64,000 nucleotides of DNA from a virus: positions 1 to 64,000 of IMG/VR virus record IMGVR_UViG_3300044631_002422. The stretch is one strand, 5' to 3'. Each line of letters opens with the position of its first letter. The first letter of the stretch is position 1. A program made the translations under genes and the position numbers. Shown in pieces: positions 748 to 43,843 of the stretch. The notes beneath the pieces were generated by a model that was not told the DNA's origin, did not search any database, and saw only the letters and a list, made by a program, of their open reading frames with translations.

Positions 748-3700
748 TTAACTTTCAATAGTGTAATATGTAACCGTTACCGATAAACCGCCACCAACTG
801 GATCTTCGCAGGTCAATCTTAATTCTTCATCATCGGCCCCAATACCAATAACACCGCCGCCATTTCCGATTGAAACACCGCTACCGGCAGCAATTCCTTT
901 ATGATCTAAAATAATTCCATTTGCACCAGTAGAAGAATCTGCGGGCAGTGTTGTTGTGGTCGAAAACGCTAATTTTACCGCAACACCACCAGCAGCCGTC
1001 ACCGCGCTATCTACAGTTACTGTTACCGAAGTAACAACAACTTTTGTGCCAGCCGCAATTGTTCCAACTATCGAAGCGCCGGTTTGGGCTCCGGTTGCGT
1101 CTGCAATATATGTTGTTCTTGAAATAGTATTTGGATGACCACCAATTGTCCAAAGAATGCCATGACGATTGGCATAAAGATTGGTTCTGTCTGCTGCCGC
1201 AACTTGAGTTGGATTAGTGCCATGTGCTATTGCCTTCGCCCCAATTTTTACTGGACTACCGGCATCTATTGCGTCATGCTCAACACTTCCATCGGTCTTT
1301 AATGAACCATTAGGACCAGCAACTAACGATCTAGAATCTGTACCATCAACAGCACCAATCATTATAACGCTAGTTGGTGCGGTTCCACTATCTTCACCAA
1401 AAGCTGGATGTGTCACATTTACTGCACCATTTGGTGACATCCATACTCTGGCAACATCACCATCTGCCTCGCCAAATGGTGGCGATGAAGAAACAACTCC
1501 TCCAATCAAAATTGGCCTATTATTTGAAACTGCAACGCCATGATTTTGTATACCACCAACAGCAAGTGTTCCAGCAGTTCCTCCGTTTACAACCGAAGTA
1601 TTACCAATTTGAGTCAAATTTATAGTGCTGTTTGCAGCGAGTGTGAGGTCAAGCCCACTCGCATTCACGTAAAGCCTTCCAAGGGTGTCTGTTTTAAGAG
1701 TCGCAAAATCCCCATCGTTTGATGTTGAAGTGGCTAAACTATCCTGTCTAACTGTCCCGGCAAGGGTCAAAGATTCACCTCCTGCGGAAGTTGCATCCTC
1801 AGTGTATTGAGTACCGCCTCCAAAAGAAGTGACCTGTGCGCCAGCAGCATTAACTATTTGAACCGAAAGAGCGCGTTCTGAGCCCCTAGAGGCTGATGTT
1901 AACGCATTTCCAGAGCCATCCTGTGTTCTAACATTCCAAGTTCCAGACTGGGTTGCCGCAATAGTACCAGTAGAATCACTAGCGACTGTGACTCGTAATG
2001 CCGTGGCAGCTGTGCCATTTCCAGACGTAGAAAGAGGTGCGGGTACTGTGAGAACATCCACATCCCCAATATTATTAGTACCAGCCGCTAGATTAGCAGT
2101 AACCGTTCCTGACACAGGCTGAGTAACAGCCGAGCCATCAACCTTCAATGCATTTGCTGCCGTAACAGTGGCGTAACGAGCGCGTGTAGCTCCGTCTTCA
2201 ATCACACCAACTTGTGCGCGATTAGTATTTATTCTACCAGCCGCCGCGTCATTTTCTGTTAAAGCTGTTCCGGCTACTTCGTCAAAGATATAGCCTGACA
2301 TTGCCAGTTTTGTCGTGCCGTCAGTAAACCCAGCGTTGTCTGTAACCACCGTGTCATCAAGTAGTTGCAGTGCAGTGATTATCGTGGATTGATTCGCAGA
2401 AGTAGCCGCGCCGGTAGGCAAAGAAACAGTTCCAGAAACGTTAGTAATATTCCAAGTACCTGACTGTGTGGCAGCTACCGTACCGTCAACAGTGATTGAC
2501 CCAGCACCGTCGTCAATTGATAAAGTAGACCCGCCGTCAGCTACATTGACTGCACCGGCAGTAGTTGTCCAAATCCTACAAAGGTCTCCGTTGGCTACTG
2601 CCGTGGGTGTGGTAGAAGAGGCATAACCACCCACAAATAATGGGTTAGAACCAGCTATAGAGTCATGGCTATGTGTCCCTTGAACGACTAAGTTACCTGT
2701 AACAATCAACTCACCGTCGTCACTAAAAGTTATAACCCTTGTCTCTCCGCTGCCAAATAGTCCACCAACAGTCACAAACTTTGTTGGCAAGGTGCTATCG
2801 CCGATTATCGCTATAGCACTATTCAAATTAGTTAATGCTGTATTGTCTACAGTTAGTGAAGAGCCATTGTCATCAACCGAGACGAGACCAGTAGAGTCAT
2901 TGGCGAGGGTAACTCGCAGGGCAGTTGCCTCGGTTCCACCACCAGTAGTTGACAACGGCGCAGGTATGGTAAGAACATCTACGTCACCAATATTGTTTGT
3001 GCCTGCCGCGAGATTAGCAGTCACGGTCCCAGAAACTGGTTGTGTTACACCGCTATTGTTAACCCAAAGACGGCCAACTGAGTCAGTTTTAAGATTTGCA
3101 TAATCTCCATCCAAGCTTGTTGAAGAAGCGGGTGTATCTTGACGAATAGCCCCAGCTAATGTAAGAGATTCACCTCCTGCGGAAGCTGCATCCTCAGTGT
3201 ATTGAGTACCACCGCTACCACCTCCAAAAGATGTCACTTGATTACCAGAACCGTCAACTATTTGCACTGAAAGCGCGCGTTCTGACCCGCGTGTAGCAGA
3301 AGTTAAATTATTGCCAGCGCCATCTTGTGTTCGCGTAGACCAAGTACCCGATTGCGTTGCAGCAACGACTCCTGTTGAATCGCTGGCGAGTGTTACTCTA
3401 AGAGCGGTTGCAGCGGTTCCATTACCAGAAGTTGAAAGCGGAGCCGGAACTGTGAGAACATCAACGTCTCCAATGTTATTTGTACCAGCCGCAAGATTTG
3501 CGGTAACAGTTCCAGATACCGGCTGAGTAACAGCCGAGCCATCAACTTTCAATGCATTCGCGGCAGTAACAGTAGCATATCTACCTCTTGTTGCTCCATC
3601 TTCCAAGGTGTGGACTTGAGACCTTTTAGCATCAATCCTAGCTGCCGCAGCGTCATTCTCAGTCAAAGCAGTTCCAGCTACTTCATCAAAGATGAAGCCG

Positions 3701-27307: not shown

Positions 27308-27538
27308 ACGATGAATACCGACGAAACGGTTGGTAGTGTACAGCTGTAAAATAGTGTACACGCGTATACTAGTCGGGCCGACCCAAATCGTCGTAAGTCC
27401 TAGAGCCACAAGGACTTATGGCAACAGGAAAAATTCTGAAAAAAATTTCTTTTTTTGTTCTAAAGCTATTGACAGTGTTTTGCCGATATGTATAATAAGG
27501 ACATGAGAAACAACAACACACAACAAAAGGAAACGAAA

Positions 27539-27905: not shown

Positions 27906-28155
27906 GGGCTTGACCCACAAGCCTCGCCCAAGTCGCGAGCATAGTTCGCCTCTCTATTCCAAAAGAGGCTTTTTATACACTAGTGTACAAGCGTACACCT
28001 GCCGGGCCGACCCAAATCGCCGTAAGTCCTAGAGCGCCAAGGGTTTACGTCAATTCAAAAAATTCCTAGAAAAATTTCTTTTTTTCTGCTCAAGTCTATT
28101 GACATTTCTAGCCGATACTGTATAATAGAAGCATAACACAACAAGGAAAATAAAA

Positions 28156-29293: not shown

Positions 29294-29733
29294 CCCTATG
29301 TAAACAGACTGCGCAAAACAACCGCCCTAAGTGCTAGAGCCACAAGGACTTAGGTCAACGCGGGCCGCCGCCGTAAGTCGCAAGTCCTAGAGCCGCAAGG
29401 GTTTACGTCAATTCTCTAGAGCAATCGTCATGCCAATCGGCAAGTGAACAAAGATTGTACATGCCAATGAGCAGAATCTATGCAGCCAATGAGCAGTTTC
29501 TGTACACCCAGCAACGCTGCTTAAATTTTAGGCACGAAAACCGCGTGTTTTGAGCAGGAAAAAAATTCTGTGCTTAATTTTTGACTTGGCACGGGATTCG
29601 CTCTATATAGTGGTATGGAAAGTAAAAATCAAAAACAGAAACTTGCTGGGGAAAGAAAAGTTTCTGCTAAAGATTTAGCTTGACAATGACGATAAATATG
29701 GTATAATAGAGTAATAAGAATTAAGGAAAAAAA

Positions 29734-30395: not shown

Positions 30396-30685
30396 AAAAC
30401 GAAATTGAAAGCCTGGAAAGTATGTCGTATGATGAACTACTTCAGGCGGCTATTGCTCTGCTTGAAAATGCGGTCGAATTACGGGCCGAATTGGATAAAA
30501 TCAGGGGCATCATCAGATGAACAACTAGTGTACAAGTGTACAGTGGCCGGGCGGGCCGCAATCGACGTAAGTCCTAGAGCCACAAGGGTTTACGTCAACA
30601 AAAAAATTTTCCAGAAAATTTCCAGAATTGGGCTCAAGACTCTTGACAAATCCAGCCGATAGTGTATAATAGAGGCATAAGGAAA

Positions 30686-31471: not shown

Positions 31472-31783
31472 TGAAATTTTTTAAATCGTTTTTTATAATA
31501 TTGTGGATGGTTGGGTTTTTGTATTGTAGTATAATGGCTGTTACTTTTCTAATTCTGGATTTTATAAAATGGTTTTGAACACGCTATAGTGTACAACTGT
31601 ACAGGTCGGCGGGCGGCCCGGCGAGCCGTAAGTCCTAGAGCCTCAAGGGTTTACGTCTGTCAAGTAGGCAAAACCCATGCCACACAAAAAAGATTTTTTT
31701 TCTTATTTTTCTCTCAAGTATCTTGACAACTAGTGCCGATACTGTATAATGAGGAAGTCAATCACACACACAAGGAAAAAGTC

Positions 31784-32548
31784 ATGCTGAAATTCTCACC
31801 TGCTAACGTCAAGATTAAAGCCCTTAAACTCGTCGCCGCACTTGCCAAGTATTTGCCACGCGGTCGCCGTGTTTATAGTTTCGACTTGCTATCCGGTCAT
31901 ACTTGCCCATTCGCGAAATTATGCCGCAGTAAAGTAAAAATAATCGACGGCAAGCGTAAAATCTTTGATGGTCCGCATACTCAATTCCGCTGCTTTTCGG
32001 CAAGTCAAGAAGCGACATATACAAACGTTTATGAGCTACGCAAACACAATACGGAAATTCTGACCGCGATGAAAGACAACCAAGAAATTTTTGATATGTT
32101 AAATTCTTCTCTGCCCAAAAATGCTGGAGTTGTTCGCATTCACGTTGCGGGAGACTTTTTCAATCAAGATTATTTCGACGCTTGGGTGATGGTTGCGATG
32201 AACAATCCGAACGTTCTATTTTACGCTTATACAAAAAGCCTGCGTTATTGGGTCAGCCGCATTGCAGTTATTCCCGCGAATATGATTCTGACCGCAAGCG
32301 AAGGCGGAAGCGAAGATAATTTAATTCAAGAATATAATTTGCGGAAAGCTGTCGTTGTTTACAACGAACAATCAGCCGCTGAACTCGGATTGGAAATTGA
32401 CCACACCGACGAACATGCCGCCAACCCAGAAACGGCAAACCACGATTTTGCTCTTCTCATTCACGGTATTCAGCCAGCAGGCAGCGAAGCAGCCGCAGCG
32501 ATTCGCGAATTGAAAAGGAACGGAGTTGAATTTGCTTATTCACGATAA
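31784..32548 (+). CDS. Gene product 88 (GP88)-family protein
   Basis: FDLLSGHTCPFA..C, CFSA, VRIHVAGDFF, FYAYTKS. Confidence 0.8.
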   Translation: MLKFSPANVKIKALKLVAALAKYLPRGRRVYSFDLLSGHTCPFAKLCRSKVKIIDGKRKIFDGPHTQFRCFSASQEATYTNVYELRKHNTEILTAMKDNQEIFDMLNSSLPKNAGVVRIHVAGDFFNQDYFDAWVMVAMNNPNVLFYAYTKSLRYWVSRIAVIPANMILTASEGGSEDNLIQEYNLRKAVVVYNEQSAAELGLEIDHTDEHAANPETANHDFALLIHGIQPAGSEAAAAIRELKRNGVEFAYSR

Positions 32549-32611
32549 GGGGTAAAACGTGATTTATATTTTGATTGTAGTTATATCGACAATTTTATTT
32601 TTAGCACTATC

Positions 32612-32899
32612 ATGGAAAAATTCAGAATGAAAAGTTTGGTTATATTTTCTTACAAGCAGCCAGTGGATGGTTCGGTTATTCGTTGGGGAATTTTAGAACG
32701 CGAACGCGATACTAAAAAAGAACCTTTATCAATCAATTCTTTATGCGGACCTTATAGAAAACGCGATGCTAACTTTGAAAGGTCGCAACATCTTGACACT
32801 ATAAAAACTCGCAACGGAATAAAAACATTTTATCGCGAGCGACAAAATTGGAAAATCAAAATTCCATTTGTTGGAAGTATAGTATCGCGATTCGTATAG
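32612..32899 (+). CDS. Hypothetical protein
   Basis: 95-aa ORF. Confidence 0.55.
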   Translation: MEKFRMKSLVIFSYKQPVDGSVIRWGILERERDTKKEPLSINSLCGPYRKRDANFERSQHLDTIKTRNGIKTFYRERQNWKIKIPFVGSIVSRFV

Positions 32900-33100
32900 T
32901 GTACACGCGTACAGGGCGCGGGCCGTCCCGCCGCGTCGTAAGTCCTAGAGCCACAAGCACTTACGTCAGTCAAGTAGGCAAAGCGTGTGCCAGTGAAAAA
33001 AAATAAATTTCAAGAATCTTTTTTTATTTTGCTTCAGACTCTTGACAAACCTAGCCGATATTGTATAATAAGGAAGTCAATCACACAAGCGAGAAAAAAA

Positions 33101-33343
33101 ATGTACAAAGTAGAAATTGCCACTGTTTACGGCCCCTTTTGTGGTCAAGGCGGTTATGGTACTGAAACCTGCATCGGTTTCGACCGTAGCGTTAAGCGGG
33201 CTTTTGCCAAGGCTCGCGGCCAAGGCAGTCACCGCTACGACCGTAGCCAGATTGTAACCGGCTCGCGTGGTGGCGGCGTTCCCGTTCTGGGTATGGTTCG
33301 GATTTCTCACAACGGAAAAATTATTTCCGAAATTTGGGATTGA
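33101..33343 (+). CDS. Hypothetical Gly/Arg-rich early protein
   Basis: Start placed downstream of promoter 33042. Confidence 0.65.
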   Translation: MYKVEIATVYGPFCGQGGYGTETCIGFDRSVKRAFAKARGQGSHRYDRSQIVTGSRGGGVPVLGMVRISHNGKIISEIWD

Positions 33344-33409
33344 CCCCTTGACAGTTGTTTTTTCTTTGGTATAATCAGCGTATCAGTCACACACTTTGGA
33401 GAATTGAAA

Positions 33410-33601
33410 ATGGACAGCTTCAGCACCAACCAACATTCCGACGAATTGGACTATCAACCCACCGCTGCCGATTGGAACGAATACCAAGAGTGGTATGACG
33501 GCCAAGAGGCTTGCTACCCAGAGGGTGATGACCTCCTCGACAGCGACCCCATCGACCTTTACGGTGGCGATGACTCGCACTACTGGCAATACGACGAATA
33601 G
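33410..33601 (+). CDS. Small acidic early protein, family C
   Basis: GGAG RBS; paralog of 27741-27905; very D/E-rich. Confidence 0.75.
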   Translation: MDSFSTNQHSDELDYQPTAADWNEYQEWYDGQEACYPEGDDLLDSDPIDLYGGDDSHYWQYDE

Positions 33602-34051
33602 GGCTTGACCCGCAAATCCCGCCCAAGTCGCGGGTATGGTATGGGGTCCATTCAAAAACCCCCTATATTCGGGAAAAGAGGTAGGCGAATTAACGTCAAG
33701 GATTTGAGAAGCCTTAGCGGTTCTGTCTTCAGCGGAAAACGGCCTCGAAGTACCATATTTCATTTTGACAGGTGAACACCTGTACACATAGTGTCTATGC
33801 TAAACAAAACCGATTTACTTTTTTTTCTTTGGCCGAAATTTAAGGTAGTCTTACTCAAACTAATCTGAATTGCCCCAGCATTTGGGCCAAAGTTTGCCCG
33901 GCCCGCGCCGCCCTAAGTCCTAGAGCCCCAAGGAGTTACAACGATTGAAAAAAAACTTTTTTTCTGCTAAAGTTCCTTGACATTGTGTGCCGATATAGTA
34001 TAATAGAGAAAGTGTGCCGATATAGTATAATAGAGAAAAAAGAGAAACGAA

Positions 34052-34339
34052 ATGAAAGTTGAAGTAACGCCCGCAAAGCCTGATTTCCAGCCCGTCACCC
34101 TGAGTATCACCATTGAGTCGTTTGCCGAACTCGCTGTGCTTTTTGCTCGATTCAATTGCCCAGTTGCGATTATTAAACAACATGGCTTTGGTGATGGCCC
34201 AATGAACACCAGACTCGCAAGAGCAGCAGATTTTAGCATCGAAGATATCGATGAAGGCGGCAGAATTTTCGACCATATTTCAGACATAGCTAGAGGTTAT
34301 TATTACGCGATGTATAATGTGGGAAAAGGAGAACGATAA
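34052..34339 (+). CDS. Hypothetical early protein
   Basis: Follows promoter 33977. Confidence 0.7.
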   Translation: MKVEVTPAKPDFQPVTLSITIESFAELAVLFARFNCPVAIIKQHGFGDGPMNTRLARAADFSIEDIDEGGRIFDHISDIARGYYYAMYNVGKGER

Positions 34340-34545
34340 TGCTACAAATGACTAAGAATGAAATTATTTGCGAAATTTTGGAACAAACAACGCCCGATGA
34401 GCTAATGTTCGACCTTGAAAATACCGATATTGAATGGTATACTGACTTGGTGTGCGATGTTGTGTTTATGCGTACTGTAAGATATCAAGATGTTTGCGAC
34501 GCTTTAGTGTGGTTTGCTTCACAAGAATTGGAGGCTTTAAATTAG
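34339..34545 (+). CDS. Hypothetical acidic protein
   Basis: TAATG coupling and RBS. Confidence 0.65.
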   Translation: MLQMTKNEIICEILEQTTPDELMFDLENTDIEWYTDLVCDVVFMRTVRYQDVCDALVWFASQELEALN

Positions 34546-34727
34546 ACAAAGACTTTTATTTTGGGCAGGAACAATTACTGTTTGGTGTTGTTTTATTTTA
34601 CTCATGAGCTTAATTTTAGTGGGGATATACAACGGCTAAAAAATTTCTTAAGTTTTGACTTGACATAGACGATAAGTATGTTAGAATGATATTGTAAATG
34701 ATGTTTCACTTTTTTGGAGAATGTGCT

Positions 34728-34931
34728 ATGATGGTTGATTTGTACGGCAAGCGTAACGAGCGTAAGGTTTCTTTCCTGTATCCTGTTGGTGGCAAGAAGA
34801 ATGTTCTTCGGGCCGTAAATGGTGTAAAGGTTCGCAGTTATACTGGACCGAATGGGCGTGGTATTACCGTCCGCGAAGACAGCGGAATCATGAAGTCCTT
34901 TTCGGTCAGCAAGTGCGTAGCTGGTCTTTAA
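34728..34931 (+). CDS. Small basic beta-barrel-like protein
   Basis: GGAG RBS upstream of MMVDLYG. Confidence 0.6.
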   Translation: MMVDLYGKRNERKVSFLYPVGGKKNVLRAVNGVKVRSYTGPNGRGITVREDSGIMKSFSVSKCVAGL

Positions 34932-34944
34932 TTGCTACGCTTGC

Positions 34945-35187
34945 AACGGCGACGGTCAGCAGACAATCGCTAAGGTGCGGAACAAACCAACAAAATCCGC
35001 ACGACTCGATTGGGCGAGTATAAATAGGATGATAGGCCCAATGCGGCGGCATTTGCCGCGAATCGGCATTAAAGTTTAGCCCTCCTGTCGTCAGACGGCA
35101 GCAAACTAAACGAGCTAGCGTGTCGCCCCAACAGTTCTTCGCCGTTCTGCTGCTGGTGGATAAAACGAACGGCGAGCTTTTTCTTTT
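34945..35187 (+). ncRNA. Candidate structured non-coding RNA
   Basis: Intergenic and GC-rich; closing helix GGCGAC/GTCGCC, several internal hairpins, possible pseudoknot, terminator-like 3' hairpin. Confidence 0.5.
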
Positions 35188-35199
35188 AGGAAATGAAAC

Positions 35200-35382
35200 G
35201 TGAAACTGATTGTATTGGATTTTCTCATCGGCATATGTCATATCTTTACCGTAACTAAGGAGTTATGCGAAAGCGAAGATAATATCGTTGATTTCCTAAT
35301 GGAAAAAGATTTTAATCTTGACAACATTCAGTATATGTATGGCGACATACCGATAATAGGCGACATGAAAGTTGTGTTGTAA
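35200..35382 (+). CDS. Hypothetical protein
   Basis: AGGA RBS, GTG start. Confidence 0.5.
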   Translation: MKLIVLDFLIGICHIFTVTKELCESEDNIVDFLMEKDFNLDNIQYMYGDIPIIGDMKVVL

Positions 35383-35569
35383 TGCAACTACTTGACAAAC
35401 TCTTGCGATATGCTAAAATGATTCGTGAAGACCGTGCCACTGTTTGTTTGTGGTGCGGTAGACATTTAGTACTGCTTTGGGACGTACTTTTTTGGAGTAG
35501 CATTGCGGCTGGCGGTTGGCTGTTTGGTTACTTGATTTGTATTACGTTTAACATTGGGAGTTTTGCGCA

Positions 35570-35815
35570 GTGAAAACTTTTCTTGAATTTAGCGGATGGA
35601 TAGAGCTTGACGAAAAAACACAAATGTGTTATTATGGAAACGGCGACCCAAAAAGAATAACGCTAAAGGAATGGCAACAGCTTCCTAGGCAAGAGCAAAG
35701 TAATTATTGGATAGAACAAGAAGATTTTGACGTACTGTACCGCTATGGCGTAGATAGTGATTTTTTTGATTGGCGTTTAGTTTTGGGAGAAAAATATGAC
35801 GAAGAAGCTGTTTAG
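35570..35815 (+). CDS. Hypothetical protein
   Basis: GGAG RBS, GTG start. Confidence 0.6.
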   Translation: MKTFLEFSGWIELDEKTQMCYYGNGDPKRITLKEWQQLPRQEQSNYWIEQEDFDVLYRYGVDSDFFDWRLVLGEKYDEEAV

Positions 35816-35986
35816 TTTGGGGCAAACTTTTGTTGTGAATGGTGTCGAATGGACTGGCCGCGAGTATCGACTTGATGCCGCGTTTGAAGGATGGACGATT
35901 GTTGCCGTAAACGGCAGTAATCAAGTGGCACAATTTAGTCTTGCAGACGTTGAAAAAGCACTGGGGGTATGATATACTAGCGGTAT

Positions 35987-36055
35987 GGGCCAGCCGCTGG
36001 TTGCGGACTTGACTCTTATAAGGTCGATGATGGGATTCGATTTCCTGCTGGCCTA
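35987..36055 (+). tRNA. tRNA-Ile(UAU)-like, atypical
   Basis: Acceptor GGGCCAG/CTGGCCT, anticodon loop CT-TAT-AA, TTCGATT loop; weak D arm. Confidence 0.55.
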
Positions 36056-36105
36056 TTTGACTTTAGCAAAATGCATGGTAGAATGATTGAAAAGGAGAAC
36101 GTAAC

Positions 36106-36375
36106 GTGGCTAAACGCAAAAAGAAACTTCCGGTTGCGAGTGGTGAAATGTTGGATTTTGTGGTGACTTTAGAGCGTCCCGAAACTGGTACAATTGTGCG
36201 GTATATCGAGCAGTTCAGCCCGTTTAATCCCGCGACTGGACAGCTATATACTCATCGAGAGTTTAGCGAACAACTTTTGCCATACGTCCGAGAAGTTGGC
36301 AAGAGTTTTGAAAATTGGAATATGTTTGTTGTTCTTGCCACAAACGAAGAAATCGAAGAACTAAAGAGTATATAA
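36106..36375 (+). CDS. Hypothetical protein
   Basis: AAGGAG RBS. Confidence 0.7.
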   Translation: MAKRKKKLPVASGEMLDFVVTLERPETGTIVRYIEQFSPFNPATGQLYTHREFSEQLLPYVREVGKSFENWNMFVVLATNEEIEELKSI

Positions 36376-36584
36376 TGGGCATACTTATTGGGCTAGTTCT
36401 TGCATTTATTTTTGTGCAGAAAATATACCATCTCAACGGAAACCGCTAGGTCGGCGGGCCGACCCGCCGCGTCGTAAGTCCTTGTGGCCCTAGCACTTAC
36501 GTCAACAAAAAAATTTCTTAATTTTTTCTCAAGTCGGTTGACATTCTGTGTCGATAATGTATAATAGGAAGCAAGGAGAACGCA

Positions 36585-36830
36585 ATGTATAAAAATTTTA
36601 CGATTGAAATTAACTGCTGGCGATGCCACGAACCATACCGCGTCAAGCCTAACTGTGAAGGTTTTCTTCAGTGGATTAGGGGAGAAGCTTTGATTCAGGA
36701 CGCAATGCCAGAACTTACTGCTGACCAACGCGAACTGATTATGAGTGGAACTTGCGACCGCTGTTGGAACGCTATGTTTCCATACAACGAAATTCTCTCG
36801 GCTGAAGTTCTTGACAAGGACGGTCGATAA
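36585..36830 (+). CDS. Zinc-finger (CxxC...CxxC) early protein
   Basis: CWRC and CDRC; LIQDAMPELTADQRELIMSG; own promoter. Confidence 0.75.
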   Translation: MYKNFTIEINCWRCHEPYRVKPNCEGFLQWIRGEALIQDAMPELTADQRELIMSGTCDRCWNAMFPYNEILSAEVLDKDGR

Positions 36831-36878
36831 TGTATACTAAGGAAGTAAGTTAAAGTCACACATTTTGGAGATTGAATT

Positions 36879-37277
36879 ATGGGTTTGGACCAGTATGCTT
36901 TCGCACGTAAGGGTGAACCTGAAAAGTATATCGATAAAAATTGGCTTGGCAAGGACCAAGAATTTATTCGCTATCCAGAAAAAAACGAAATCGCCTATTG
37001 GCGAAAGCACCCCAATTTGCAAGGTTGGATGGAAAATCTATACCGCGAAAAGGGTGGTGACGCTGAATCTTTCAACTGCGTTGATGTTGAATTGACGCTC
37101 GAAGATTTGAACCGTTTAGAGCGTGATATTAATAAAGGTGCTTTACCAAGCACGACCGGCTTTTTCTTTGGTTCAGATTCCGACGAATACTACAAAGAAC
37201 AAGACGAGAAATTTATCGACGCGGCTCGCGATTCAATTATTAACGGTTACACTGTTGTTTATAATTCGTGGTGGTAA
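36879..37277 (+). CDS. Conserved phage hypothetical protein (MGLDQY...YWRKH...GFFFG family)
   Basis: Motif set recognisable from many phage genomes. Confidence 0.8.
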   Translation: MGLDQYAFARKGEPEKYIDKNWLGKDQEFIRYPEKNEIAYWRKHPNLQGWMENLYREKGGDAESFNCVDVELTLEDLNRLERDINKGALPSTTGFFFGSDSDEYYKEQDEKFIDAARDSIINGYTVVYNSWW

Positions 37278-37308
37278 CTAACGTTAAAGAAATAACAAGG
37301 AGAAAGTT

Positions 37309-37617
37309 ATGAGCAAATACTTTACAGCAGCAGAAGCAAAGAAATTGGCCGGAAAATCAGTTGAAGAAAAAGTTGAGCTTTTGTGTGAATCAATCAAGAA
37401 AAACGCCAGCGAACGTAAACGTTCATTAATAACTGGTTGGGAGCACAAAGAAGACCGAGATTTGTGGATTGATGGTGGATACAGCCGAACAGAAGATTGG
37501 GAAAAAGCAAAAAAGATTCTTGAGGCACTTGGTTATAAAGTTACATTTTATTGTCAAGAGCCCCCATCCGTGTGGGCAATCCCAATCGTTGCTATGTATA
37601 CCATAATTGAGTGGTAA
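37309..37617 (+). CDS. Hypothetical protein
   Basis: AAGGAG RBS. Confidence 0.7.
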   Translation: MSKYFTAAEAKKLAGKSVEEKVELLCESIKKNASERKRSLITGWEHKEDRDLWIDGGYSRTEDWEKAKKILEALGYKVTFYCQEPPSVWAIPIVAMYTIIEW

Positions 37618-37645
37618 CTGACAAACTGCTTCAAAGGAACGTAAC

Positions 37646-37834
37646 GTGAAAATTTGGTGTGTAGCGTGTTTTTACGAAGTCCAGCGTGATGCCCATTGGC
37701 GTTTGGAACTCAGCAATATTTATTTGTTTAGTTCTGCTCAACTGGCAAATAAGTTTGTTAGGAGTAATTATTACCAAAAAATGAACTACGACGCATTTGA
37801 AACTTATGAATCAGAGGTTGACAATGCGGTTTAG
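37646..37834 (+). CDS. Hypothetical protein
   Basis: AAGGA RBS, GTG start. Confidence 0.55.
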   Translation: MKIWCVACFYEVQRDAHWRLELSNIYLFSSAQLANKFVRSNYYQKMNYDAFETYESEVDNAV

Positions 37835-37979
37835 TGTGGTATACTTGCGTTATGAAGATTAAAATCAACAAAGTGGCAACGGGTCACAATCCGCCAGTAT
37901 TTCGCTGCGGCAAGTGGCAGGATAAGCGTAAACGGCGTGAGCGTACTCGCGCAGCACAAAGATTAAAGTGGAGTCGGGA

Positions 37980-38240
37980 ATGAGCGTAAAGACTCTTGTT
38001 CGTTGTCGCGGATTTACTGAAATTTTTAGCGATAACAAATACACATATATTTATCACAATGGTAATATGGGTGACACAGAAAGTCATATTCGCAAAAATT
38101 TTGATAGTATGTATTTTGATGGAGCGTACAACAGGCTTGAAAGGCAAGCAAATGTTATTAAAGATGGCTCGCCTGATTACAGTTTTGTTTTACGTGTTCC
38201 TACAAATGTATTTAACGCTTTGATAAAGGAGAACGAATGA
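37980..38240 (+). CDS. Hypothetical protein
   Basis: GGAG RBS; ATGA overlap with the next gene. Confidence 0.6.
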   Translation: MSVKTLVRCRGFTEIFSDNKYTYIYHNGNMGDTESHIRKNFDSMYFDGAYNRLERQANVIKDGSPDYSFVLRVPTNVFNALIKENE

Positions 38241-38605
38241 TTAAGATTAAAGGTTTGCCGGAAGGCTATGACATTGTGAGGATTGGCAGGCCAGAGGCTT
38301 GCGAATTATTTATAGGTGGCACTGGGATGGTGGAAAGGTCAAGCGGTGATTTGATGGCCGCTTGCTACCTCATCGTCCGCAAAATCGAGCGGCCAAAGCA
38401 ATACAGGCCGTTTGCCAGTGCTGAGGAGTTTAAGCCGCATCGGGATAGGTGGACAAGGCGAATCGCATACGACCCACAAGGAAATGATATTTACCCGCCA
38501 ACACGATACAGCGATTTAGGTTATCACGGGTTCAAATGGCAATGGTGCTTTGAGAACTTTTCATTTGACGATGGTACCCCATTTGGCGTGGAGGTGAGTG
38601 AATGA
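38237..38605 (+). CDS. Hypothetical protein, family D
   Basis: G.P.GY..VRIGRP...RKIE.PK.YRPFA...G.PFGVE shared with 61583-61951. Confidence 0.8.
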   Translation: MIKIKGLPEGYDIVRIGRPEACELFIGGTGMVERSSGDLMAACYLIVRKIERPKQYRPFASAEEFKPHRDRWTRRIAYDPQGNDIYPPTRYSDLGYHGFKWQWCFENFSFDDGTPFGVEVSE

Positions 38606-38744
38606 AGGTCTTTGTTGTAATTTGTTTTAAGGTAATTGGCCGCGAACATATTTTTGTAAATGCCGCCGTTTTCAAAAACTCAAATGACGCATCTACGTTT
38701 GGTGCAAATTATGACGATTCAATAGTAATCGAAAGGACTGTATC

Positions 38745-39167
38745 TTGAACGCCAAAGTTTATATTTACTGGAATTTACATAAGCGTTGTTTCAGTGCAAA
38801 ACGAAACGGCAAAGTTTTCGCCCACTTCCGAAATGCCAGCATTTTGAATCCTGAGTTTCGAGTGAGTGCTGCTGGATGCCGCCGTGTTCGTCGCGATGGT
38901 CGCAAAAATGTTCATGCCAACATTGTATGCGAATTGGAGAATTTTACAATTCATTCAGACAGCAGAATCGCCCCTGTTAGTGACGCTACTGCTGAGTATG
39001 CTTACTATAATCCGTATCTTTACGAAACTTTTGTTGACAACGAAGGTGATGCATTGTATAATGCACAAAGTGCCGAGTTAACCACTTATGAGCATATGCT
39101 CAATTACTATAAAAATTTGAAAGAAAGACAACCCATTATTTACATTACGAAAGAAGCAAATGACTAA
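38745..39167 (+). CDS. Conserved phage hypothetical protein (YWNLHK...RKNVHA...YNPY)
   Basis: Widespread phage motif pattern. Confidence 0.75.
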   Translation: MNAKVYIYWNLHKRCFSAKRNGKVFAHFRNASILNPEFRVSAAGCRRVRRDGRKNVHANIVCELENFTIHSDSRIAPVSDATAEYAYYNPYLYETFVDNEGDALYNAQSAELTTYEHMLNYYKNLKERQPIIYITKEAND

Positions 39168-39354
39168 CGACATTGCAAAAAGATTAGAAAACGACATTGC
39201 AAAAAGATTAGAAAAACTCCAAGATGACTTGAACCATCTGGCCGAGAAACTCTCTGGAGAAGGTCCATCTAGCTATACCGAACGAAAAGAGCGAGCAAAA
39301 GAACGACAAGCTTTTGTTAGTGAAATAGAAAGAATGCAAAATGAAAGTGAATAA
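39160..39354 (+). CDS. Small coiled-coil protein
   Basis: Contains an in-frame 24-bp tandem duplication (NDIAKRLE x2). Confidence 0.6.
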   Translation: MTNDIAKRLENDIAKRLEKLQDDLNHLAEKLSGEGPSSYTERKERAKERQAFVSEIERMQNESE

Positions 39355-39550
39355 GCACAACCGCGACCTAATTATTGCCGAATATATCGACCGTACCATC
39401 GATGGAATGGATATTAAAGGACTTATTGAATATGTTCGTGGCGGAATAGAAGCCGACCTTAAACATTATTCCGATACAGAATTGGAATATGAAATTCTTG
39501 ACCAATACGATGATTTTCCTTGGTACGATTTTGATTATGCAGATGAATAA
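39341..39550 (+). CDS. Small acidic protein
   Basis: Overlaps the upstream stop. Confidence 0.6.
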   Translation: MKVNKHNRDLIIAEYIDRTIDGMDIKGLIEYVRGGIEADLKHYSDTELEYEILDQYDDFPWYDFDYADE

Positions 39551-39622
39551 AGTATAAGGTTTTGGCGGCCCTGTTGGTAGTTTTGTTATTGAATATAAGG
39601 AACCTTCATTAGAGAATAAATA

Positions 39623-39832
39623 ATGACCGAAAACCCACTACAACTAGCAACTAAAAATTGGATAGAAGCAGTCCAGAAGTATTATGAGAATACTCGTAGT
39701 AATGAATTGACCCAAATTCATATGAGGGGTTATTTCAGCGGTTGGAGCGAACGCGAGATTCTGGAATTTGCGAATAAATTGGCTAAAAATGAACAGGACT
39801 ATCCTTTGTATAGAGAGAACGAGAATAAATAG
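39623..39832 (+). CDS. Hypothetical protein
   Basis: 69-aa ORF. Confidence 0.6.
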   Translation: MTENPLQLATKNWIEAVQKYYENTRSNELTQIHMRGYFSGWSEREILEFANKLAKNEQDYPLYRENENK

Positions 39833-40056
39833 GCCCGCCCGCCGAGCCCTAAGTCCTTGTGCCGCTAGGACTTACGTCAATCAAGCAAAGCAACTTTTGT
39901 GCCATTCCCGCTCGGGAAAATTCTAGGCAAACCGCAAAAGTTATTCCCGCTCGGGACAGAAAACTTTTTTCTTTTTTTTCTCTCAAGCCACTTGACCTTC
40001 GCGGTCGATAAAGTATAATGAGAGAGTAAGTCACACACAATGTTTAGGAGTTAGTT

Positions 40057-40908
40057 ATGCCTCGCCGTGTTGTTAGTTGTCAGTTGCCGCCCGTCAAAAC
40101 GTGCAAGAATACCAATTGTGCTAGTGTTGCTATTAGCTACGATGGTTTCTGCAAGTCGCACGCTCCAAGTCGTCGCATTAAGAGCTATAATTCGCGTCCG
40201 CGATGTAGTTCACGATGGGCGAATCCTATCGGTATCGAACTCGAAATGATTCATCCAGAATCCGCAAGCCGTTTGGCACAAGTTGCCCGCTTTGCATGTA
40301 CCGATGCCAGTTTACCCTATGGTGGTGCGGAAATCAAGCTGGTGCAAGATGCCAGTAAGATTACCAATATCGCCGCCGATACTGCTCAACGTGCTGGCCT
40401 TGCTGGTGCAAAGGTTAATCGTAGCTGCGGTTTTCATGTTCATATGGGATTGCCCAATGGTGTCAGCGTTGGATTAGAGCGTCGAAGCGATGCGAACTGG
40501 TCAAGCTGTAACGCCCGTTATCGTTTGTGGGCATTGGCAACAAACTTTCAAGAATACTTTTTTGATATTGTTCCCAAAACTCGCCGCACGAACCACTATT
40601 GCTCGCCGTTGACAAGCGTAACCAATAGTTTACATTCTCACTATGCTTGGCTATCTGTTTCGCACCGTGTTCCTACGGTCGAACTACGGATTCATAGCGG
40701 AACGGTCAATCCGTGGAAAGTCAAAGGTTGGGTCGAAGTCGCTGTGCGTTTGCGTGAAATGGTAAACGCCGCGATTCTCGGAACCCAAGGTTGGGATAAT
40801 CTTCCTAGCAAGAAGTTTGTAGATTATATGGAACCGGGAACACTTGGTTCCAAGTATTTGCTCGCTCGCGAATGTGCTGGTGGCAAACTGGTAAATTTTG
40901 GATTCTAA
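40057..40908 (+). CDS. Putative amidoligase (COOH-NH2 ligase, Amidoligase_2)
   Basis: IGIELE, DASL, AEI, VNRSCGFHVH, TVELRIHSGT. Confidence 0.85.
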   Translation: MPRRVVSCQLPPVKTCKNTNCASVAISYDGFCKSHAPSRRIKSYNSRPRCSSRWANPIGIELEMIHPESASRLAQVARFACTDASLPYGGAEIKLVQDASKITNIAADTAQRAGLAGAKVNRSCGFHVHMGLPNGVSVGLERRSDANWSSCNARYRLWALATNFQEYFFDIVPKTRRTNHYCSPLTSVTNSLHSHYAWLSVSHRVPTVELRIHSGTVNPWKVKGWVEVAVRLREMVNAAILGTQGWDNLPSKKFVDYMEPGTLGSKYLLARECAGGKLVNFGF

Positions 40909-40959
40909 TTATCGTTCGATAGAACGTACACACACTCACTTTTTTTGGAGAATTTTATT

Positions 40960-41826
40960 ATGTGTCGATTGGCTTATATTCCGGGCAACTGCAAAGTAAA
41001 CCGTACTGATTTGGTGGACCTTTTGCATATGCTGCAAAAGTCGTTTGGTGGCGATGGTAACGGATTCGTTGCCGTTGGTCCCAATGGTGAGGAGTTTAGC
41101 GAGAAGGGTGTCAAGTTAGACAACGATGCTATCGTTATCAAAACTTGGAAACTTATCAAAAAGGGTTGGTCGGTTTACTATCATACTCGCAAGATTAGCG
41201 TAGGCTGGAGTAGCGACAAGCAATGCCATCCGCACCGTATCAACGGTGACAAGTTCAAGGGTTGGCTGTGCCACAATGGAACGTGGAATGATGGAGTACC
41301 GCTTGCCAATTATCTTAACTGTGGTAGCGATACCGCTGCTCTTGCTCGATGTATCGGCAAGTTTGGTATCGAGGGAGCAGAAAAACGCAATCTGTTTCCC
41401 AAGTCGGGCGTGTTTCTTATCTACGGTAGCGAGAATGGCGAATCGCCTATTCATCGCGTAGTCAAGAAATCGGGCGACTTGCAATACTGCCCCAAGACTG
41501 GTATTTGGGCCAGTGAGTTCGAAAAGGATTGGCCGTACTGGTCGCAGGTTTATACCGCAACTGTTGGCAAGCACTTGCTTTGCAAACCAGCCCCACAATA
41601 TATTTCGCCTGCTCGCGGTAATGGTGGCAAGTTTGTGAGTCGCAAGAATAGCCATCCTGATATTATTGATTCAGGAATTCCAGCACCGTGGGACGATGAT
41701 GACCGAACCGTTGTTGATTCGCGTCGCTCGTTGTCGCAACGATTGTGGCCGCAAGACCCTACTGAGTACGAACCAGAGCCAGATTGGGAATATCGTGGCG
41801 GATACCCACGACGCGATTTGAGTTAG
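40960..41826 (+). CDS. Class II (Ntn) glutamine amidotransferase
   Basis: Starts MCRL (Cys2 nucleophile); DGNG, HTR, CHPH, HNG and SDT motifs. Confidence 0.85.
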   Translation: MCRLAYIPGNCKVNRTDLVDLLHMLQKSFGGDGNGFVAVGPNGEEFSEKGVKLDNDAIVIKTWKLIKKGWSVYYHTRKISVGWSSDKQCHPHRINGDKFKGWLCHNGTWNDGVPLANYLNCGSDTAALARCIGKFGIEGAEKRNLFPKSGVFLIYGSENGESPIHRVVKKSGDLQYCPKTGIWASEFEKDWPYWSQVYTATVGKHLLCKPAPQYISPARGNGGKFVSRKNSHPDIIDSGIPAPWDDDDRTVVDSRRSLSQRLWPQDPTEYEPEPDWEYRGGYPRRDLS

Positions 41827-42189
41827 TGTGTGTGTGTGTTTGTAGGTGAGTTTTATCTTTTAACTTTAGGAGTATTTTATGAAGAAGTGTACTGGTTGTG
41901 GCCGTCCAATTGAAACTGTTGTTATTCGTCAATGTCCAAAATGCATCAACAATCGCGCTGGATTATAAGTGTGTGTGTGTGTGTGTGATGCCCAACAGCT
42001 TGGGGGACGCAAGTCCCCCGGCTGTACGGGTGTACACTACGCGGGCCGCCCCGCGACGCCCTAAGTCCTTGTGGCTCTAAGACTTACGTCAATCCGCTAG
42101 GCAAACCTCATGCCAAACAAAAACAAAAATCTTTTTTCTTTTTTCCTCAAGATACTTGACAAGCAATGCCGATATAGTATAATAAGGAA

Positions 42190-42316
42190 GTGAGCAGTGG
42201 CCTGACAAGCAGGTACGACTCTCGACAGTTAAGGACCGGGAAGCTCCGGGCTGAACCGTTTCGTAGCGGTTACTGTTGATTGCTGCTGTTGGCGGTGTTC
42301 GATTCCCGCCGCTCAC
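42190..42316 (+). ncRNA. tRNA-like small RNA with its own promoter
   Basis: Begins 6 nt after the TATAAT of promoter 42156; closing stem GTGAGC/GCTCAC; T-arm GGCGG..TTCGATT..CCGCC; T-run follows. Confidence 0.6.
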
Positions 42317-42406
42317 ATTTTTTAAAAATTCCGCTTGACATTCGTTGAGCGTAACGTATAATTCAAGAGTAACAAGTTCAGTTTTTTTTCACGAAGGGTT
42401 TTTACC

Positions 42407-43327
42407 ATGTCTACTGTTTCCCGTTCTAATGTTTCTGCCAACGAAATCTCGGCTCGCGTTGCCGCTGCTTTCAACTTCACTGTTGACAAGTTCCCGCTTG
42501 CTGGCCCAGATGGTCTTCGCACTCCGTGGTACGGTATGTTCCGCTCTGACAACAACGAAGTTGTTGGTAACGGTTCTGTAACCTCGCGGTACTGTCCACA
42601 CCAAACCGAAGACGTTCTCGCACTGGTGGATGCCGCCAGCGAAGCGTTTGAAGGTGTGGCGAGTGTTGACACCTACTTCCGCGATGGGCATTATGTCGCC
42701 ATCGAACCAACTCGCGAACAACGTTATGCGATTTTCGGCACTGCCGACAACATCTTTCCGCGTGTCGTGATTCGTGCGGGTTACGATGGCAAGGCGTTCA
42801 ACGCCGCGATGGGTTATTACCGCGATGCTTGCCGCAATCTGGCAATCATGCGACAAGTTAGCGGAACCACCGTTTCCATCCGCCACACTAGCGGACTGCG
42901 AAGCCGCATGGATTCGCTGATTCAAAGCTTTACGAGTCTTCGCGATTCGTGGCAAATGCTGGCCGCAACTGCGGTTCAGCTTGAATCAACTCGCGTGAAT
43001 CTTGCGGACTTCCTTCGCGAAGTTTACGGCGAACCCGAAACCGACAGCGGTCGTGCTGCGACTATCCATCGCAATCGTACCGAAACGATTTTCAATCGTG
43101 TGATGGATGAACGTAGCCGCACTGGTCGCGGTGCTATGCCAGCCGATTTCCGCGTCAGCGGTTGGGAAGCGTTCAACGCTGTGCAGGGATTCGTTCAGCA
43201 TGAATCAACTCGCAAGAGTTCGGCTCGCGGTGCTGCCGCAACCGGATTTGGTCGAATCATCGCCGCCGCTAACGATGCTGCGGTTCAACGTGCCGAACGT
43301 GCTGCGATGAATCTGCTCGCGGTTTAA
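42407..43327 (+). CDS. DUF932 domain protein
   Basis: R.D....G..V...Y.P.Q, YDG, YR.ACRN, IRHTS, WEAFNAVQ. Confidence 0.8.
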   Translation: MSTVSRSNVSANEISARVAAAFNFTVDKFPLAGPDGLRTPWYGMFRSDNNEVVGNGSVTSRYCPHQTEDVLALVDAASEAFEGVASVDTYFRDGHYVAIEPTREQRYAIFGTADNIFPRVVIRAGYDGKAFNAAMGYYRDACRNLAIMRQVSGTTVSIRHTSGLRSRMDSLIQSFTSLRDSWQMLAATAVQLESTRVNLADFLREVYGEPETDSGRAATIHRNRTETIFNRVMDERSRTGRGAMPADFRVSGWEAFNAVQGFVQHESTRKSSARGAAATGFGRIIAAANDAAVQRAERAAMNLLAV

Positions 43328-43353
43328 TCTTTCGTGTGTTTCCTTTCGTGTGA

Positions 43354-43388
43354 GCCAGTGGCGGCATTTTGCCGCCGCTGGTTTTTTT
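43354..43388 (+). terminator. Intrinsic terminator after DUF932 gene
   Basis: GCCAGTGGCGGC-ATTTT-GCCGCCGCTGGT followed by a T-run. Confidence 0.85.
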
Positions 43389-43770
43389 AGATAGGTGTAC
43401 AATGGTATACATACTAATCGTCATTGTGGCGTGTATTATATTTTTGATGCTGGAATTATAATTCCGGTTATACTCTGGCCGCCTAGCGCGGCCTTTTTTA
43501 TTATACTTTCGGTGAGTTGACGTAAGTCCTTGGGGCTCTAGGAGTTACGACGCGCGGGGCCGGGCGGCTTACTGTACATCTGTACACCTGTACGAATTTT
43601 CACTATTGACATTCTGTCTCTGCTAAACTATACTGATTTGCTGGGAACTCTTGGCCGAAATTTGTCTTATCCAAAGTATTAAGATTTGCCCACAACATTT
43701 GGTCTGAATTCATATTTTGCTAAAGTGTGGCTTGACATTAGTCGATATGTATTGTATGATGTTATTGTAT

Positions 43771-43843
43771 GAGACTGTAGCTCAGATGGTAGAGCAATAG
43801 ACTTTTAATCTATTGGTCGTGGGTTCGATCCCCGCCAGTCTCA
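43771..43843 (+). tRNA. tRNA-Lys(UUU)
   Basis: Canonical cloverleaf, anticodon loop CT-TTT-AA. Confidence 0.95.

Follow-up and report, generated by a model that had tools for sequence, protein, structure and literature searches.

Palindrome interiors have changed orientation within the repeated early-promoter cassettes of an uncultured phage

The non-coding DNA of plastids contains recurrent small inversions that are enclosed by hairpin stems and whose two orientations are equal in energy (PMC6824564; PMC12928735); in these, a flip-flop mutation at the stem reverses the loop and mimics several substitutions (Kelchner and Wendel 1996, as cited in PMC6824564; PMC12928735). In T4-like phages, the promoter-early stem-loop (PeSL) cassettes are repeated intergenic modules of a stem-loop and an early sigma-70 promoter located between small early genes (PMC2839356, PMC4122927). 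These two systems are the closest parallels to the element described here, a 25-bp imperfect palindrome present in 12 copies in the early region of the phage recorded as IMGVR_UViG_3300044631_002422, whose genome is complete (148,313 bp, with direct terminal repeats according to IMG/VR); the window analysed is its first 64 kb (64,000 nucleotides). In this array two segments of the palindrome, one nested inside the other, have been reversed, each without the other and without the flanking DNA. It is rather probable that the array consists of cassette copies carrying rare, fixed, hairpin-type micro-inversions of the palindrome interior, and that it does not constitute a switch.

Each palindrome contains the 8-bp half-site TAAGTCCT and its complement, flanking a 9-bp centre. 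A search of the complete genome for half-site, N9 and half-site with at most three mismatches detected exactly 12 sites, all of them intergenic and all within the window at 27.4-43.5 kb (Table 1), while the reversed pattern, used as a control on the same genome, gave 0 sites. From 26 to 43.4 kb the phage encodes exclusively plus-strand small genes, as established with a codon-usage gene caller that was used in place of gene direction from open reading frame length, the latter being unreliable for small genes. Nineteen perfect (12/12) sigma-70 consensus promoters are located between 26823 and 42362, all on the plus strand, with a spacer of 16 nt in 17 of them and 17 nt in two, most containing the spacer motif GCCGATA; in total the early region holds about 26 promoters compared with 12 palindromes. 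The layout common to 11 of the copies comprises optional TGTACA boxes, a GC-rich box, the palindrome, GTCAA, an A/T tract and a consensus promoter, and in five cassettes (copies 3/4, 6, 7, 10 and 11) an antisense sigma-54-like motif is present between GTCAA and the A/T tract. This motif, TGGCA-N5-TTGC on the minus strand, occupies positions 29421-29435, 31668-31682, 32978-32992, 39890-39904 and 42101-42115, in each case between palindrome and promoter.

The centre of copies 1-8 is AGAGCCNCA, with the GC-rich box upstream and GTCAA downstream. Copies 9, 10 and 11 maintain this order of flanks and carry the centres TGTGGCCCT, TGTGCCGCT and TGTGGCTCT, respectively, which agree with the consensus at 8/9, 7/9 and 9/9 positions as reverse complement and at 4/9, 5/9 and 4/9 when read directly. 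This confirms the original observation that copies 1-8 share a common core and that copies 9-11 carry its reverse complement within forward flanks, copy 10 being the least clear flip and a mixed case. Seven forward-frame variants of the centre occur among the 12 copies. The sequence CTAG is found at one centre/arm junction in every copy except copy 11 (CTAA), on the GC-box side in copies 1-8 and 12 and on the far side in copies 9 and 10. The flipped copies are not an assembly artefact, since the arms (8-10 bp) are far below assembler k-mers and the flipped copies have substitutions of their own. Along the same region the GC skew shifts from about 0.02 at 26-34 kb to 0.10-0.20 at 34-42 kb with all genes on the same strand, a shift that coincides with the change of centre orientation between copies 8 and 9.

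Table 1. Palindrome copies and associated features in the window, by position.
Feature	Position	Strand	Centre and remarks
Copy 1 palindrome	27394-27418	+	Forward centre (27402-27410)
Copy 2 palindrome	28023-28047	+	Forward centre
Copy 3 palindrome	29328-29352	+	Forward centre; 53-bp pair with copy 4
Copy 4 palindrome	29381-29405	+	Forward centre
Copy 5 palindrome	30568-30592	+	Forward centre; centre of the L121 ortholog is TGTGCCCCA
Copy 6 palindrome	31629-31653	+	Forward centre; L121 ortholog in the same orientation, 8/9 match
Copy 7 palindrome	32939-32963	+	Forward centre; sister of copy 9
Copy 8 palindrome	33914-33938	+	Forward centre, rare C variant; sister of copy 12
GC-rich box upstream of copy 9	36450-36474	+	Forward flank orientation
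Copy 9 palindrome	36475-36499	+	Flipped centre (36483-36491), 8/9 reverse complement of copy 7
Promoter of copy 9	36538-36565	+	Consensus sigma-70 type
Copy 10 palindrome	39850-39874	+	Centre (39858-39866) probably flipped
Copy 11 palindrome	42062-42086	+	Centre (42070-42078) is the exact reverse complement of the consensus
Promoter of copy 11	42156-42183	+	Consensus sigma-70 type
Two canonical intrinsic terminators	43352-43384, 43477-43493	+	End the early transcription block, before copy 12
Copy 12, TTGACG and palindrome	43517-43547	+	Palindrome from 43523; centre (43531-43539) is the exact reverse complement of the centre of copy 8
Promoter downstream of copy 12	43606-43634	+	Next transcription unit; tRNA at 43771-43843

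Copy 12 differs from copies 9-11 in that, as had also been proposed, the cassette is inverted as a whole, TTGACG lying to the left of the palindrome and, to its right, the GC box (43551-43568) followed by three TGTACA boxes (43573-43593); read in its own flank frame, its centre is of the forward type. It is indeed the last copy, but the proposal that it closes the array does not hold, as it closes nothing: it follows the only two canonical terminators of the early stretch, which lie at the end of that stretch, and precedes the next promoter. Two relatives carry this site: L121, a metagenome contig with 88% nucleotide identity over the DUF932 gene and orthologs of copies 5, 6 and 12, and G001 (78% identical), in which the ortholog of copy 12 retains its GC box and TGTACA boxes. 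Since the orientation of the whole cassette, including these boxes, is the same in all three phages (3/3), copy 12 is an old, conserved cassette of opposite orientation located upstream of the next promoter, which it serves.

The independence of the two segments is evidenced by pairs of sister copies, because the asymmetry of the arms lets arm polarity be traced. Copies 7 and 9 share all 16/16 arm bases in direct orientation (14/16 in reverse), including a rare right-arm variant, and copy 9 also has the GC box of forward copy 7; their centres, on the contrary, match (8/9) only as reverse complements. Likewise, copies 8 and 12 have identical arms (16/16 direct, 14/16 reverse) with a different rare variant, and centres that coincide at 9/9 positions only as reverse complements, the rare C of copy 8 included. 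A second level of nesting is observed in copy 3, whose 25-mer matches that of copy 9 as reverse complement at 24/25 positions and which, compared with copy 7, has the arms swapped and the same centre. The centre alone therefore seems to have been inverted in at least two events, from the type of copy 7 to copy 9 and from that of copy 8 to copy 12, and copies 10 and 11 probably underwent the same inversion; the predicted inversion of the core independently of its flanks is supported, appears to have occurred more than once, and was independent of the arms as well.

The competing explanation that had been foreseen at the outset, namely one ancestral micro-inversion followed by copying or local spread to give copies 9-12, is unlikely, because the pairs 7/9 and 8/12 share arm variants while their centres are reversed and because copies 9-11 are not grouped by their flanks. 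The flank most similar to that of copy 11 belongs to copy 6 (76/100 downstream), and copy 11 groups with forward copies 6 and 7; the upstream flank of copy 9 is nearest to that of copy 7 (24/35). Copy 12, in turn, occupies an old site, which has orthologs in both L121 and G001. What keeps this explanation alive is the contiguity of copies 9-12: the four plus-strand 'TG..CT' centres stand together at the right end of the array, an arrangement found in 2/495 placements (9/495 for any contiguous run). Moreover, copies 9 and 10 are mutual nearest neighbours in their downstream flanks (69/96), and the 32.5-42.1 kb segment that holds copies 7-11 is absent from L121 and could be a recent expansion.

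The element is not restricted to this phage. A pattern scan of IMG/VR detected it in more than 116 contigs, many of which share synteny from the terminase to the early region (tblastn), and 419 related palindromes or hairpins were collected from 117 sources, 283 of them between co-directional genes. In the relatives the palindromes usually come in pairs that flank a GC box at a distance of 52-53 bp from each other, with hypervariable 7-nt loops and half-site variants specific to each of four positions. A sigma-70 promoter (at least 10/12) is found within 200 nt downstream in 63% of promoter-proximal hairpins and upstream in 1%, so that the element is a clade-wide intergenic cassette placed upstream of sigma-70-type early promoters; by the same measure, the promoter follows 9/10 elements in this genome and, in the relatives, 52/82 paired and 61/109 single elements. 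The antisense sigma-54-like motif is located between palindrome and promoter in 32% (26/82) of the paired cassettes of relatives, compared with 2/82 at a control position. Arm polarity is swapped within fixed flanks in 11/83 canonical upstream hairpins and is unlinked to the GC-box side in single elements, and these swaps across relatives make interior flips characteristic of the family as a whole. The same palindrome (CG, 9-bp arms, 7-nt loop) also forms the tip of a conserved locus of about 150 nt in Pirellulales (L196:4250-4560, L233:3700-3960 and about 15 other contigs), which has the shape of a long hairpin followed by a terminator; its flanks are more than 90% conserved, its loop is hypervariable and in one pair exactly reverse-complemented, and it has no match in Rfam.

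As single-stranded DNA the copies fold at -1.2 to -7.6 kcal/mol, with z above -1.6 for five copies and with copies 2, 4 and 11 no better than shuffled sequences, and as RNA they give z between -0.1 and -5.8, several copies being indistinguishable from shuffles on both strands. None of the palindromes (0/12) was called as a plus-strand terminator, and the minus-strand terminator calls that overlap copy 3 (29340-29324) and the GC box of copy 10 (39849-31) are not palindrome stems. Because folding is weak and uneven and yet the half-sites are conserved in sequence, neither a cruciform nor an obligatory RNA hairpin is likely, and recognition of the duplex is the better guess: the palindrome is most likely a duplex binding site for a protein, in which the half-sites are conserved while mispairing is tolerated, and the orientation of the centre would then have little or no effect. 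The asymmetry of G.U wobble pairs was considered as proof of an RNA hairpin and rejected, given that arm polarity, which is independent of the flanks, follows the sense strand here but opposes it in the relatives (107 vs 57).

A functional role of orientation, in which the centre would be read strand-specifically, either as an RNA loop in read-through or antisense transcripts or as a polar DNA signal, with copies 9-11 as a distinct class, is improbable. The evolution of the centre in concert within the genome, the side of the CTAG junction, the change of orientation at about 34 kb, where the GC skew shifts within co-directional genes, and the fact that forward and flipped loops would be complementary as RNA are all consistent with such a role. 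On the other side, orientation correlates neither with promoter spacing nor with whether a cassette has the antisense sigma-54-like motif, the RNA folds are uneven on both strands, the loops are hypervariable across relatives and no other target of the centre sequence was found elsewhere in the genome.

A broader proposal can be considered in relation to the repetitive extragenic palindromic (REP) sequences and bacterial interspersed mosaic elements (BIMEs) of enterobacteria, imperfect intergenic palindromes in which mismatches give polarity. The phage elements resemble them in this mismatch polarity and, in the relatives, in head-to-head pairs around a short linker, but the phage has neither a RAYT/Y1 transposase gene nor a GTAG-type 5' tetranucleotide, and its elements are tied to promoters. 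It is quite improbable that the palindromes are the phage counterpart of BIMEs or of integron attC sites, that is, polar, mismatch-marked double palindromes through which early-gene cassettes would be exchanged, inverted and homogenised without a dedicated recombinase, the orientation of the centre being a functional mark of polarity that switches between copies 8 and 9, where base skew changes.

Comparison of the centres with those of relatives points to exchange among the copies. The relatives have almost perfectly palindromic centres (TGTG-C-CACA type) in which positions 1 and 9 are T..A, as seen in the L121 orthologs of copies 5, 6 and 12 and in the G001 ortholog of copy 12, whereas all 12 centres of this genome have A..A or T..T at those positions, a state not found at the orthologous sites of L121; between orthologs the centres differ at 1-4 of 9 positions. 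Since a lineage-specific state is common to sites that are older than the split, the pattern indicates concerted evolution, presumably by gene conversion among copies. Very unlikely is an explanation without any inversion, by parallel point substitutions at positions 1, 3, 5, 7 and 9 of a degenerate palindromic centre (WGWGSCWCW): the palindromic centres of relatives are indeed two or three changes from either mirror state, and copy 10 is mixed, but the centres of copies 11 and 12 reproduce existing forward centres, the rare variant of copy 8 among them, exactly (9/9) as reverse complements, and a single inversion or conversion accounts for each copy far more parsimoniously than five coordinated transversions would.

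Orientation was also compared at orthologous sites, a check that had been suggested for the idea of a core that flips back and forth, and the outcome speaks against it. In relatives, 77 orthologous hairpin pairs that are not identical were compared: the loop was direct in 65 and reverse-complemented in 1, and arm polarity was kept in 50/50; G002, the closest relative by terminase, has an early region with one such palindrome and no orthologous sites. On short time scales flips are thus a rare, slow mutation whose states are inherited and fixed per site. An ongoing flip-flop, in which hairpins or cruciforms would be extruded and processed and the phage population would contain both orientations, is accordingly very improbable, despite the palindromic layout and the nested flips at two levels in one genome; in addition to the orthologous sites, it is contradicted by the arms of 8-10 bp around a 9-nt loop with the weak folds described above and by the substitutions proper to the flipped copies. 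The interconversion differs in this regard from that of the flip/flop terminal hairpins of parvoviruses, which also show two orientations of a palindrome interior but lie at the genome termini and, by hairpin transfer at every round of replication, produce roughly equal mixtures; here the palindromes are internal and fixed per site.

Whole blocks of the array differ between close relatives. L121 lacks a 9.6-kb block (window 32540-42125, holding copies 7-11; L121 junction at 2942-3027), which implies that cassette content turns over quickly, and downstream of the DUF932 gene both L123 and G001 show rearrangements. The L121 junction carries a different palindromic module, with CTGCCATTTTGGCAG-like arms around a GC box, that is also present in L123, L067 and L205. 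The suggestion that core orientation decides between deletion and inversion, as in directional site-specific recombination sites of the lox/FRT or attC kind, is the least probable of all: such sites also have inverted arms around an asymmetric centre with gene cassettes between them, and the relatives do differ in cassette content, but no tyrosine recombinase, serine recombinase or Y1 transposase was found in the complete genome (no match to Pfam Phage_integrase, PF00589, Resolvase, PF00239, or Y1_Tnp, PF01797, with control genomes positive), the centres are neither identical between copies nor conserved among relatives, the cassettes carry their own promoters and the breakpoint of the L121 indel is at a promoter without a hairpin.

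Micro-inversion of the palindrome interior within cassette copies thus stands as the preferred account, and a mechanism can be outlined for it. The cassette occupies the DNA that separates the end of an early transcription unit from the strong sigma-70-type promoter that comes next, and, the half-sites being inverted repeats of each other, the stretch between them can turn while the flanks stay. The turn would most likely be a rare mutational event. One route would be a strand switch inside the palindrome during replication. The other would be short-patch gene conversion between copies paired in antiparallel register; because the arms read alike in both directions, a donor may pair with the recipient in either register, which offers a simple way to flipped centres. 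The swap of the arm asymmetry between copies 3 and 7 represents the second level of nesting. Of the mechanisms originally put forward, exchange within the arms therefore remains viable, in line with the homogenisation of the centres, while cruciform or hairpin processing is not favoured by the folding energies.

In comparison with the plastid inversions, the similarity lies in a short segment found in both orientations between short inverted repeats, with unchanged flanks and in intergenic DNA near gene ends; here the 9-bp centre is directly bounded by inverted repeats, and the flanks and arm asymmetries are unchanged between states. The plastid arms are longer (11-24 bp, vs 8-10 bp here), and the phage palindromes belong to an early-promoter cassette with 12 paralogous copies in one genome, show two nested levels of flipping and have centres that evolve in concert, which makes conversion between copies a second possible route. 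What is new with respect to the plastid cases is the setting in paralogous phage promoter cassettes, the nested flips and their coupling with concerted evolution. The PeSL cassettes resemble the phage elements in that the stem-loop is tied to an early sigma-70 promoter in intergenic DNA and in that close relatives differ by whole-cassette indels (PMC4122927), as in the 9.6-kb difference from L121. Unlike PeSL stem-loops, which are terminators, the palindromes described here have no U tract, fold unevenly and have strongly conserved half-sites; they are accompanied by the GC box and the TGTACA boxes, in relatives also by another palindrome at a distance of 52-53 bp, and they belong to a different phage clade. 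We know of no reported centre flips in PeSLs.

Several observations weigh against this account. Low-level heterogeneity of orientation may exist within one site, and the contiguity of the flipped plus-strand centres (copies 9-12) could reflect one event that spread locally or a switch of polarity near 34-36 kb. The arm variants that define the sister pairs are also common half-site variants elsewhere in the family, so that parallel mutation is possible. Within the genome the 9-bp centre is far better conserved than the flanks, which hints that something reads it and that its orientation could matter. Across relatives, reverse-complement loop matches within a genome exceed the chance level only weakly (12 observed vs 8.6 expected, maximum 16), and a Pfam search of 20 early-region proteins gave no DNA-binding candidate that could be the binding protein.

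The palindromes had no match in Rfam by gathering threshold or E-value, a megablast of the 36-44 kb region against the INPHARED phages gave no match, a search of IMG/VR for close relatives with an amidoligase-like protein found nothing, and the literature on the half-site motif returned primers and shRNAs only. A scan of 185,579 prokaryote genomes yielded mis-binned phage contigs, chance terminator hairpins and the one conserved Pirellulales locus, and no host assignment. Within the early region, a Pistol self-cleaving ribozyme (RF02679) was matched between early genes at 35004-35065 (+), with 47.7 bits compared with a gathering score of 34.5. Just upstream of copy 11 there is a (GT)n run (region 41846-41987), and the 124 bp that precede it are 95% identical to G001 1463-1586, located there downstream of the ortholog of copy 12, which indicates that this segment was relocated. 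Between the promoter of copy 11 and the DUF932 gene, a conserved tRNA-like RNA with an acceptor/T-arm end (42190-42320) is also conserved in L121 (3095-3215).

For phage genomics these observations are a caution, as one mutation in a palindrome can mimic five substitutions or a designed 'orientation code', and in repeated promoter cassettes the interiors become homogenised as well as flipped. The cassette family as such is of more interest, with hundreds of copies in more than 100 contigs of a large uncultured phage clade and with no described binding factor or function. The flips in the sister pairs provide a natural experiment on it: if forward and flipped copies behaved alike, the centre would be a spacer, and if they differed, it would be a new regulatory signal.

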